Source of the DNA: Bryobacterales bacterium
GTDB taxonomy: Bacteria > Acidobacteriota > Terriglobia > Bryobacterales > UBA6623
DNA: 64,000 nucleotides
NCBI GenBank assembly: GCA_965261065.1
Contig: OZ253444.1
Span: 4,710,381-4,774,380 of the forward strand
Direction: 5' to 3'
Under the pieces are notes generated by a model. That model did not search any database, was not told the origin of the DNA, and saw nothing but the letters and a program-made list of their open reading frames with translations. Positions 14,641 to 54,531 of this stretch are shown in pieces. Both the position numbers and the translations under genes were made by a program. Within the stretch, counting starts at the first letter, position 1; each line of letters opens with the position of its first letter.

Positions 14641-16335
14641 TCATCCCCCACCTTTGCGAAATCGCTGCGCCCCGACCAGCGCCAGCTCACCTTGTTCCGA
14701 CAGCACCAGCAGCAAGTCCTGGTCGGGCAACAGGACGAGCTGGCCGTGGCCGTAACGTCCGCCCTTCCACTTGCGCTCGCCGTCATCCAGGTCGATGCAC
14801 GCGAGGATCCGGCCGTCGAAGCCGAAGGCATGGCCTTCGTGAACGACAAAGTCGTTGAAGTAGGGCTTCAGCCGGAACGACGTCCAGCGCTCTTCAATGG
14901 TCCATCCGCCTGGTCCGTGCGAGACTGAGACGCGGCGCACGCCGTTCGACTCGCCGGCGCTCAGTAGGACATCGTCGTCGGCAGTCAACGCTGGCTGCAC
15001 GATACGGGCGCGCGGCGGCCACGGGTGCTCCCAGAGCAGCTTGCCATCGCCTGGTGCAACGCTGGTCGCGCCGGTTCCGCTCATTAGCAGGATCTGCACG
15101 ACTCCGTCGATCTTCATTGGATGGGGCGAACTGTAGCCGGCGCCGCCTTCGGGTCCGGACCAGCGCGGATCGCCGGTGGCGAGGTCGTAGGCCACGAGCT
15201 GGCCGGGCACGGCCACGATGACGAGGTCGTCGACCACCAAGGGCGAGCTTGAGAAGCCCCAGTCTGGGACCTTCGCGTCGGTGTCGGACGCCGCGTTCCG
15301 CGACCACACGACCGTACCGTCAGCGGCATCGAGCGCGTTCAGGATTCCGGTGGCGCCGAACGTGTACACGCGACCGTCGCTGAGAGTCGGCGTAGCACGC
15401 GGACCGGCGCCGCCAATCGACTCCCAGAACCGAACTGCGTCGCGGTGTCTCCACACCGGCTCGCCGGTGGTCGCGTTGTAGCAGGCGACGACCTCGTCCT
15501 CACCGCGCTGCTCCTGGGTGTAGAGGAAGTCGCCGCGGACCGCGAAGGACGACCACCCTGGTCCGATCGGCCGGCGCCACAGCTCGACCGGCGGCGACTG
15601 AGACCAGTCGGTCTCGATCCGTATGCCGAGGATAACGCCGTCGCGATCGGGTCCGCGAAAGCCAGGCCAGTCGGCGCCCGTCGCGGTTGCTTCGGAAGCC
15701 GGCGGAATCTCCGTTGGCTCGCCACCGACTTCGTCGAGGAGCGGTTCCTCAGGGGTCTTCGCTGCTGTCGAGGCTGGCGGGAGCGCCGCAGGCTCGTCAG
15801 CGGCTCGGGCCAAGAGCTGTTGCTCGGGAGTCTCCGATCAGCGCCAGGCGAACTCCGCGGAGCCGCCGCCGGTTAGGCCCTCCGTCCGCAGGAGCGTCCA
15901 CCCTCCGCACGCCAGCAGGATGGTCGCGGCCAGCGCCGCGCGCCGAGGCCCATCAGAGAGGCGACGGCTGGCCACCGCCCAGGCGACGAAGGCGAGACTC
16001 AGCACGGGGATCGCGTAGAAGAAGAACACCATCCGCATCATCCCCGTCCCAATCGACTCGTGGAGGAAGCGCGAGGTCGCGACCAGCGCGACGGTCATCA
16101 GGACGACGGCGCCCCAGCGCTCGAACCGAGGCGCCCGGCTGAAGAACACCCACCACACGACGACCGCCAACCCGCCGGCGAGTCCACCAAGCGGCGCGAT
16201 GTAACCTGCCGCGGGACCGGGCATGACGAGGGGGACCACATAAAAGGCCAGCCACTGTAGTACCACGGCGACCACGCCGGGCCACAGCCGAAGCGGCTTC
16301 TGAGGAGTCGGTTCGTCGCCCTGTGCGATGGTCAT
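14641..16335 (-). pseudogene. membrane-anchored PQQ-like (BamB-like) beta-propeller protein interrupted by an in-frame TGA
   Basis: The TM-rich N-terminal ORF (ATG 16335..15841) and the beta-propeller ORF (15837..14641; WPGFRGPDRDGV and repeated propeller blades) are in the same frame. They are separated only by TGA at 15838-15840 (..SAEFAWR*SETPEQQ..). Confidence 0.65.
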
Positions 16336-16651
16336 AATTACACCATACGGTCCCCACAAGACGTTTGTTTCCTCGTTCTTGGCTGGGACTCAGCTTCCTG
16401 CGTTTCTTGGTCGGCAAGAACGGGAGCGAACCAAGCCCTACCTGCGGTTGAATCCGGCCGTGATGTAGGAGGCAGATCCCGGCCTGTCGGCCAGTGTAAA
16501 GCCAAACGCCACCAGAAGAGCGCGTAACGCGCTACCCGCAGAACTGGCAGCCCGTCCTGCCGGTTCCGGCGGCTGCCCTCCACACCACTCCCCGGGCAAG
16601 AAGTCCAGCCAGCCCTGGAAGAACAAATTGATGAGATAGGATAGCAACAAG

Positions 16652-51335: not shown

Positions 51336-51912
51336 CTAAGAAGAAGCCCTGGTCTCCCGCAAACAGAACGGGGATCTCTCGTCCGTCGATCGTCGCCCGT
51401 ACTGCGGAGAGATCCGAGCGGCCCCGGACACCCGTGGCGAACAACACCAGAAACACCTCGCTCCCTCGATCCAGGCGGTGGCGCTCAGAGTGGTAAACAA
51501 CGAGGTCGCCACAACGAGCGAGGGGTCATCGAGCGCGAGGACGGTCGCCGCCAGGCGGTCGCAGTAGTCGCCGTCCGGCTGTGTGATACAGGCATCGAAC
51601 GCCGGATCACGCTCGACCGCGTTACCCTGCTCGTCTCGAACCCCCTGGGTCACCACGAGCAGGTAACGCCGATGCTGCAGGGGCAAAGCGGCATCGCTGG
51701 CACGGCTGCAACCCTCCACCTTCGCTCAGTCGTCACGCTCGCAGATCCGTCGGCGTTGGCGCATGAGTCGACCCTGGTGTGTGGGCGGACGCACCGACAC
51801 CTGCGCCGCACGCCAATGGCAACTCATGGTCATCAAGTCACGTACAGAACGATTGAATTTTGGGACAATACGGGGTTGGGAGAGTCCTCTGCATTCTGAA
51901 AACGCGCTGACA

Positions 51913-54531
51913 ATGGCTGCCCCACTCCGCGTTCCTTGGAAGATCGTAGCTCTATTGTCGACGAGCCTCTCTGCGTTTCCTCAAGTAAATCCGGACATCG
52001 CCGGAGTCGCGCACACGGTGCTGGCGGAACACTGCCTGTCCTGCCACGGCTCGGCGAAAACATCAGGACTGGATCTTCGAAGCCGCGAGGCGTTGCTGCG
52101 CGGTGGTGTCCGCGGGCCGGCTGTGACTTCCGGCCAGATTGAGTCAAGCTTGCTCTACCAAGCGGCGGCTCACTTGGGAGATCTAAAGATGCCGCCGGGG
52201 AGCGCCGATCCGCTGCCTGTCGATCAGCTCGGCATCCTTCGACGCTGGCTTGACGCGGGCTTTCCGTACCCAACCCCGGATGGGCAGCCCGGATCGAGTG
52301 CGGACGAAAAATGGTGGTCCTTCAAACCTCCCCGACGCCCCAAAGTGCCCCAAGTGAAGCATGCTGATCTGCCGAACCCGATCGACGCTTTTGTGTTCGA
52401 AAAGTGGGAGCATGCGGGACTGCACCATGCTGCGCCGGCAAGCAAACAGGTGTTGGTGCGGCGAGCCTACTTTGACTTGGTCGGTCTGCCTCCCAGCCCA
52501 GCGGAGATCATCCAATTCACAAAGGACGAATCGCCCGACGCCTACGAGGAGCTGATCGACCGGCTTCTCGAGTCAAAGCGATACGGCGAGCGCTGGGGTC
52601 GGCACTGGCTCGACGTCGTGCGCTATGCCGACAGTGGTGGTTTCGAGACCGACGAGTTCTACCCCGACGCATGGCGGTATCGCGACTACGTGATCAAGTC
52701 GTTCAACTAAGACAAACCCTACGATCGGTTCGTCCAAGAGCAAATCGGCGCGGACGAGCTGTGGCCGAACAACCTGGATCTCTACGACAGCAGCTACGCA
52801 ATCCGCCCCGAGAAGGTGGAACATCTGGAGGCGCGCGTGGGCACGGGTCTCTACACGTTCGGCACGGCTATAGGCGAGTCGTATCTTGAAACGCCGCAGC
52901 TACTGTATGAACGCTTTACGGATTGGGTAGACACGACCGGGGCCGCCTTCATGGGCCTCACGGTGGGGTGCGCCCGGTGCCACGATCACAAGTTTGATCC
53001 GATCACTCAGGAGGAGTACTTCCGACTGCAGGCAGTGTTTGCCGCGAGCCAACCCGTGAGCCTCTCCGTCGTCACAAAGATGACGGAGTTTCACCGGAAC
53101 GAGGCGTACCCCCGCTACGTCGCGCTTGATGAGAGCCGCAATGCCTACGAGCTGTTTCTCGATCGCGTCAAGCAGCGTCTCGTCAACGAAAAGAAGACTG
53201 AGTTTGAAGCGGATATCGTTGGGGCGTTCGAGGTGCCTGAGGACGAGCAAACAGATGAGCAGAAGAAGCTTGCCGAACCTCTCGTCGAGGCGGTGGCGAA
53301 GATCAATCCTGAAGAACACTTCACGGCTGAGGAAACGATCGAGAAGACAAAGTTACAGCTCGCGATCGCCGAGGCTGTGATCGCGGTTCCAAGACAGGAT
53401 GCCTCGCACGGCGTTCGCTTCGACGCTTTGTTCGACATCCCCTCGGCAACGGTGCTGGGCCCTGTCGCGCCGGAGCTGATTCCCGCGATCCATGTTCTTG
53501 ACCGCGGAGACCTACAAAGCCACAAGGCCAGGGTGGGGCCCGGTTTTCCCTCTGCTCTCAGCCGTGGGGATGAGTTCGAGACCCGCGATCCGAACGGCCA
53601 TCGTTATCGAAAAAAGCTCGCTCTTTGGCTCACCAGTCCCGACCACCCACTCACCGCTCGCGTGATGGTCAATCGCCTTTGGCAGTGGCATTTCGGGCGT
53701 GGGATAGTCGGCAGTTCCAATGACTTCGGTCGGCAAGGCCAACCGCCGACTCATCCGAAACTGCTTGACTGGCTGGCCACTGAATTCGTCGCTCGCGGCT
53801 GGAGTCTCAAATCGATGCACCGGCTCATCATGACGTCGTACGCCTACAAGATGTCGAGCCAATTCTCACACAGAGACAACCTTGCGATCAACCAAGACAA
53901 CCGTTACCTTTGGCGCGCCAACCGGCGGCGACTGGAAGCAGAAACGGTTTGGGATGCGATCCACTCGGCGGCGGGCACGCTGAATCTGAAGATGGGCGGG
54001 CGGCCCTTTGTGCCCCCGCTCTCCGATGCCGAGCTTGCGCCCCTGCGTAACAAGTGGTGGTGGACGGTGCCGGCCGATCCGGCGGATCATTCGCGGCGGG
54101 GTGTGTACATGCTGGCCCGTCGTACTTTCCTGTTCCCGATGTTTGACAAGTTCGACACGCCGGATCCGGCCGTGAGCAGCCCGAGCAGAGAAGTGACCAC
54201 GGTCGCTCCCCAGTCACTGTTTCTGCTCAACAATCCGATTGTCTTCCGACAGGCGCTGGCGTTTGCTGGACGACTGGTGCAAGAAACGGGCGAAGACCCT
54301 GCCAAATGGGTCGATCTTGCTTGGCGCATCAGTTTCGCGAGGGCTCCGACGGCTGCGGAAGCGAGGGAAGCGCTTGAACTCCTGGAATCCGCTTCCGGTG
54401 AAGGCGGCTGGGAGAAGGCCCCCGAGAATCTCCCGAAAGCCTTGGTAGGTATCGATCCAGCAAGAGCACGGGCGTTGACGGAGCTGTGTCTGGCGATCTT
54501 TAATTTGAATGAGTTTCTCTTCGTCGACTGA
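51913..54531 (+). pseudogene. PSCyt (CxxCH) + DUF1549 + DUF1553 protein with an in-frame TAA
   Basis: Start at ATG 51913 ([22 protein letters not shown]). The heme-type motif is CLSCHG. The DUF1549 block is [21 protein letters not shown]. The two track ORFs share a frame and are separated by TAA at 52708-52710 inside ..[26 protein letters not shown]... DUF1553 blocks follow (CARCHDHKFDP..). Confidence 0.75.

Follow-up and report, generated by a model that had tools for sequence, protein, structure and literature searches.

The question raised by this locus is whether stop codons that interrupt recognisable genes in an assembled bacterial genome are true mutations, or whether they should be read as sequencing errors, as recoded sense codons or as the ends of naturally separate genes. 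The window analysed here is the whole 64,000-nucleotide stretch (contig OZ253444.1, positions 4,710,381 to 4,774,380; G+C content 61%) of the genome of a Bryobacterales bacterium, for which an earlier note, made from the sequence alone, had listed six in-frame stop codons. All six were confirmed in the window sequence, with the same coordinates, strands and peptide contexts. Numbered S1 to S6 along the window, they lie in genes encoding a membrane-anchored PQQ_2 beta-propeller protein (S1), a conserved hypothetical protein (S2), a DUF4132/DUF7737 protein (S3), an ISKra4-family transposase (S4), an M36 fungalysin-type protease precursor (S5) and a PSCyt1-PSCyt2-PSD1 protein (S6). Our results support the notion that each of the six stops is a genuine nonsense mutation, a heritable change of a single base, and that they accrued successively in this Bryobacterales lineage, with no recoding involved, a reading to which we give a probability of roughly 0.9.

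An open frame on both sides of a stop is by itself weak evidence of an interrupted gene, since such openness is common in the window: 49 stops are flanked in frame by at least 100 open codons on each side, ordinary neighbouring genes and antisense frames included. This abundance of chance same-frame stretches speaks for the view that the open reading frames (ORFs) beside each stop are naturally separate adjacent genes which share a frame by chance. It is homology that sets the six sites apart. At 6/6 sites, one homologous protein aligned in a single frame across the stop, with conserved residues on both sides, and among several hundred matches we found no homologue that ends at any of the six stops and is followed by a separate downstream gene; moreover, the S6 stop lies inside a Pfam domain. 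We therefore consider the chance that the flanking ORFs are separate genes as practically negligible, and the claim of the earlier note that they belong to one protein is borne out by homologues spanning all six stops. The same note had described the genes as otherwise continuous. This is true of the S6 gene, in which the stop is the sole lesion, but not of the five others, each of which also carries insertion sequence (IS) insertions, frameshifts or large truncations.

At each position, orthologues or ancestral alleles have a sense codon that a single mutation would turn into the stop, S5 being the weakest case. To read these codons within the species, we turned to other metagenome assemblies in ENA and used contigs with >99% identity to the window, reached via clusters of near-identical proteins: contigs A (ERZ25071132 ctg819295; loci L007, L014), B (ERZ25068887 contig_29; L005, L008, L016), C (ERZ28763718 ctg23109; L006, L012), D (ERZ26167216; L009, L013), E (ERZ25074053; L010), F (ERZ25069191; L011) and G (ERZ25766727 ctg340289; L015). 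The Microflora Danica long-read soil survey (PMC12313526) is the source of some of the closest relatives. Each stop recurs in one to eight other deposited contigs, and the distribution is nested. The S3 stop is present in all seven conspecific contigs (L005-L011), with no sense allele; S4 is a stop in A, B and D (L007, L008, L009) and S5 in A, B, D and G (L009, L013-L016), again with no sense allele among the contigs covering these sites. The S2 stop is shared by the window, A and B (L005, L007, L008), with TGG in C, D and E (L006, L009, L010); the S6 stop is shared by the window, A and B (L014, L016), with GAA in C, D and G (L012, L013, L015) and in the sister-species loci L019-L022; and the S1 stop is confined to the window and A (L007), with TGG in B (L005, L008). 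Thus, at S1, S2 and S6 the sense codon is seen as DNA in nearly identical contigs. The single nucleotide polymorphisms (SNPs) fall into 25-30 sites private to the window, 11-14 shared by the window and A and 19-22 shared by the window, A and B, with one homoplasy, and the order of the SNP tree agrees with the nesting of the stops.

This pattern bears directly on the possibility that sequencing or consensus errors, for example methylation-linked G>A/C>T miscalls of long reads, made some of the stops. Such a view draws on the many private substitutions of the window (27-30 per ~36 kb, 28/30 of them from G:C to A:T or T:A), whereas its closest sisters, contigs A and B, show no private sites, and on the contig names of the related assemblies, which resemble those of long-read metagenomes. 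However, contig A carries all six stops, so that not one is unique to the window, and the S3 stop is also found in two short contigs from separate projects, L103 (a scaffold, with a frameshift region identical to that of the window's S3 gene) and L104 (a SPAdes-style NODE name, coverage 2.3), which are probably short-read assemblies as judged from the contig naming. No sequence motif common to the six sites was found. Taken together, the nested recurrence, the presence of S3 in contigs of other projects and the lack of a common motif make random error, motif-linked error and recoding poor explanations. In addition, the window differs from contig A by 4 indel events and 33 substitutions, unlike typical long-read error, and the private substitutions are unevenly spread, with 1.43/kb in pseudogenes vs 0.78/kb in intact genes (p=0.013); the DUF4132 pseudogene by itself accounts for 7 of them (p=0.003). 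Their higher density in pseudogenes argues for real mutations filtered by selection. An origin of some of the stops in sequencing or consensus error is therefore very unlikely, and the view of the earlier note that at least part of the decay is real finds support in this nested recurrence across deposited assemblies and in the S3 stop of the two other-project contigs. As for the lack of private SNPs in A and B, these contigs may represent a population consensus without singletons, a mutator genotype of the window clone being the other possibility; haplotype switching was considered as the cause and judged unlikely, because sites private to the window and sites shared with A interleave at ~100 bp.

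Among the individual genes, the S6 gene (51913-54531, + strand; 872 codons) gives the simplest case. Its TAA (52708-52710, +) lies inside the PSCyt2 (DUF1549) domain, the Pfam match spanning the stop, and the intact protein of L015 aligns to it over residues 1-872 in one frame with this single stop and no other lesion in the window. The joined sequence belongs to all three families, with 42.9 bits for PF07635, 257.9 for PF07583 and 286.3 for PF07587, each above the gathering score. In contig C the gene bears an independent GG>GGG frameshift (L012:8226-8228, corresponding to window position 52762). We take the S6 gene to be dispensable; another strain has broken it independently. Next to it, a 537-nucleotide IS1380 fragment (50801-51337) lies between a HemN-like gene and the S6 gene, and at this place the sister-species loci hold a 910-residue gene without a Pfam domain (L020, 18002-20734), which suggests, from the comparison of these loci, an IS-associated deletion in the window's species.

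The S1 gene allows the order of events to be read. A query spanning its TGA (15838-15840, -) matched >100 PQQ_2 proteins of 575-635 residues (~600), which cover 98-99% of the query, the best being 92% identical, and the position reads AEFAWRWSETPEQ in every orthologue examined. The codon is TGG in L001-L004 as well as in contig B, L001 being an orthologue with 94% identical DNA which, like L002, has TGG where the window has TGA. What remains of the gene (14668-16338, -) corresponds to residues 1-557 of ~604; homology to L001 and L002 stops abruptly at 14668, where the 3' end is replaced by an IS with DUF6788 and DDE_Tnp_1 ORFs (13046-14531). The truncation junction at 14668 is common to the window and contig B, and contig B keeps TGG. 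Hence the truncation is older than the stop, which fell in an already broken gene. The orthologue loci L001-L004 (92% identical) share synteny with the window no farther than the S1 gene.

The S2 gene is in pieces. Its homologues (P0121 and relatives) have ~660 residues, no Pfam domain and a coverage of 98-100%, and the TAG (25685-25687, -) stands at the Trp of HTWAP/HTWGP in orthologues. By tblastn, an N-terminal piece was found at 27069-27842 (-) and a middle piece, equivalent to residues ~255-668 of the L006 protein, at 24806-26047 (-), the two being parted by an IS1595 copy (26037-27088, recognised by its repeat and transposase); residues 608-659 of P0121 align to a C-terminal piece at 17780-17941 (-), and between it and the middle piece lies a 6.9-kb insert flanked by IS1380 (17932-24837). 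This insert resembles a composite transposon, with two inverted IS1380 copies (85% alike) around 3.9 kb that encode subunits of a 2-oxoacid:ferredoxin oxidoreductase (20715-21767 and 21764-23248). It is absent from contigs A and B, in which position 17941 directly adjoins 24828 and P0278 is continuous across the junction, and a single IS1380 occupies the same junction in C and E. The presence of IS1380 at 17941|24828 in the window, C and E, but not in A and B, conflicts with the SNP tree. The gene has been broken independently elsewhere as well, by an IS1380 inside it in contig D (L009:1155-2822) and by a frame change in contig E.

The S3 gene (31502-33887, +; ~795 codons) has homologues among DUF4132/DUF7737 proteins of ~790 residues (coverage ~94%), in which a conserved Trp (KKWR/NKWR/QKWL) occupies the position of the TAG (32135-32137, +), pointing to TGG>TAG. 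A second lesion is a frameshift at 33141-33145, across which the alignment of P0155 passes from frame 2 (residues 1-552) to frame 3 (residues 552-798). The S4 gene (43389-44843, -), with at least two frameshifts, near 44466-44472 and 43748-43752, and without its C-terminal third, homology being gone beyond ~43389, is more decayed. Its reassembled frames match NF033572 over profile positions 13-356 of 422 (E=1e-45), with 156 bits, which is under the curated cut-off of 205 bits and not full length; it is a decayed ISKra4 relative and shares 79% identity with the intact copies of a sister metagenome-assembled genome (MAG). The TGA (43641-43643, -) replaces the Trp of the GDGAxWIWN motif, which is W in 82/83 informative homologous copies, read by tblastn from 80 loci in species-representative genomes, mostly Bryobacterales MAGs. 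The first frameshift is absent in one related contig (P0348).

Of the S5 gene (45267-46043, +), a signal peptide and FTP propeptide remain, recognised by an FTP profile match, and the catalytic M36 domain is deleted. Full homologues have ~1000-1200 residues, combine an FTP propeptide with Peptidase_M36 and align on both sides of the stop, and P0353 (1234 residues; FTP, Peptidase_M36 and PPC) aligns to the remnant only by residues 7-219. The TAA (45507-45509, +) falls in the propeptide region, where the window reads RQRKAKL*AYRA vs QRKARLEAYRA, and the position is Glu in 4/8 aligned homologues (P0353, P0355, P0356 and P0358), including the two best matches, P0353 and P0355. S5 thus probably comes from GAA>TAA, as judged from these homologues, and is the least secure of the six.

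For S3, S4 and S5 we infer the ancestral codon from conserved residues in homologues. In all, four stops derive from TGG (Trp) by a G>A transition to TGA or TAG, and two from GAA (Glu) by a G>T transversion to TAA, as read in DNA for S6 and as is probable for S5. The earlier note had placed both TGA sites at Trp, and rightly so, with TGG read at S1 in contig B and L001-L004 and Trp at S4 in nearly all IS copies; the TGG origin that it proposed extends to both TAG sites, and the TAA stops trace back to GAA (probably so at S5) and not to CAA/CAG, with 0/6 stops derived from Gln. Wherever the ancestral codon is secure (5/5 stops), the coding-strand change was G>A or G>T, and of the polarised substitutions in the lineage 55/66 go from G:C to A:T or T:A. 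G>A and G>T being the dominant class, the mutation types of the stops fit the spectrum of the lineage. From this spectrum and the codon usage of 26 intact window genes, nonsense mutations are expected to come from Gln (26%), Trp (26%), Glu (20%), Arg (7.5%), Tyr (7%) and Ser (7%), and to make up ~4.5% of coding substitutions; ~3 of ~51 were observed on the window's lineage, which is near the neutral expectation and fits mutations in dead or dispensable genes.

The codons also bear on whether the stops are decoded, with TGA read as selenocysteine or Trp, TAG as pyrrolysine, or a reassigned code. The position of both TGA stops at Trp would suit such a reading. Indeed, UGA is the leakiest stop, and its reading by near-cognate tRNA-Trp would restore the wild-type residue. 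Nevertheless, the six sites include TGA, TAG and TAA, each of which also ends intact genes, the terminators of the 26 intact window genes being TAG in 12, TGA in 11 and TAA in 3, which is not what a reassigned code would leave. Where the stops are polymorphic, other strains of the species carry a normal TGG or GAA; the residue in homologues is Trp or Glu, not Cys or selenocysteine; and all but one of the six genes bear further lesions. A search of the window for tRNA genes and Rfam families, including the selenocysteine insertion sequence (SECIS), gave no match. We consider it highly improbable that any of the six stops is decoded.

Several points weigh against reading all six stops as nonsense mutations. 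The support comes from assembled contigs rather than from reads, and we infer the independence of platforms and samples of the ENA contigs only from accession numbers and contig names. At S5, the position is A, K or S in the other 4/8 homologues, and the ancestral codon rests on homologues at most 58% identical. Trp at 4/6 sites is slightly above expectation (one-sided p ~0.04). Four Trp and two Glu sources are nevertheless compatible with the expectation, and the Trp excess is not compelling.

Successive nonsense mutation thus remains the reading that we prefer, and the stops probably escaped selection because their host genes were either already dead, by IS insertion, frameshift or deletion, or dispensable. 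Inactivation before the stop is shown for S1 and is likely for S2-S5. The products would be truncated, non-functional proteins, and the setting is an IS-rich stretch of a ~9 Mb chromosome that is undergoing stepwise gene loss. It is also conceivable, although on the whole unlikely, that the window clone decays unusually fast for a free-living soil bacterium, owing to a mutator genotype or a recent collapse of effective population size. In this clone the nonsynonymous-to-synonymous ratio is near neutral even in intact genes, and under fast decay nonsense mutations may go unpurged, several IS families may be actively inserting and co-occurring strains may show nested stages.

Other lesions and mobile elements were found around the six genes. 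The region holds IS1380 (three full copies and the 537-nucleotide fragment), two IS630, two IS1595, the ISKra4 remnant and a tyrosine integrase. Both IS630 copies (7683-8760 and 36035-37113), which are 99% identical, have their transposase in two ORFs (184 and 162 residues); either a programmed frameshift or a defect common to both could account for this. A gene of the PNP_UDP_1 nucleoside phosphorylase family (42018-42877, -) is split into 192 and 94 residues in the window and contig A by CCC>CC at 42649 and is intact in B (286 residues) and D (278 residues), so that this lesion lies on the same branch as S1. A Peripla_BP_4 gene (62019-63016, +) is split into 216 and 130 residues in the window and in every conspecific contig covering the site, and is a single 332-residue gene in the sister-species loci L019-L021. 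At 39549, inside a decayed pentapeptide/ion-channel gene, the window and A differ from B by a homopolymer length (C9 vs C10); whereas the six stops are substitutions, an indel of this type could stem from long-read error.

For annotation, these results mean that the six loci should be marked as pseudogenes, since they now appear as separate short ORFs in public protein collections (e.g. P0123 and P0157). In terms of method, conspecific contigs of other assemblies can tell substitution-type stops from artefacts in long-read MAGs, and here the comparison also yielded ancestral codons and the relative order of mutations. The locus is, moreover, a small clean case of stepwise gene loss in a large-genome soil Acidobacteriota, with sister strains hitting the same genes independently.

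To conclude, we compare the locus with known systems. Recoding systems (selenocysteine, pyrrolysine and genetic codes 4 and 25) also present in-frame TGA or TAG codons in conserved proteins, but their defining features are lacking here, with Trp at the TGA sites in homologues, no SECIS match in the window and TGA and TAG in use as terminators. A universal G:C to A:T mutational bias in bacteria has reportedly been described by Hershberg and Petrov and by Hildebrand and colleagues, in 2010 in both cases. The G>A/G>T stops and the lineage substitutions are in line with it, whereas the share among window-private substitutions seems stronger than this generic expectation, the sample being small. 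Nonsense pseudogenes together with IS expansion are well known from recently niche-restricted bacteria such as Shigella, Yersinia pestis, Mycobacterium leprae and Sodalis. The present case differs in that it concerns a Bryobacterales bacterium of soil or sediment that is uncultured, has a ~9 Mb genome and is not known to be host-restricted, and in that the decay was seen in one 64-kb IS-rich region rather than genome-wide. It resembles them in that genes with intact orthologues have been hit by in-frame stops, frameshifts, IS insertions and deletions, in its many near-identical IS copies (IS1380, IS630, IS1595) and in gene states that are polymorphic among close strains. What we describe is thus ordinary pseudogene formation of a known kind and not a new mechanism, and its value lies in being a polarised, population-supported example.

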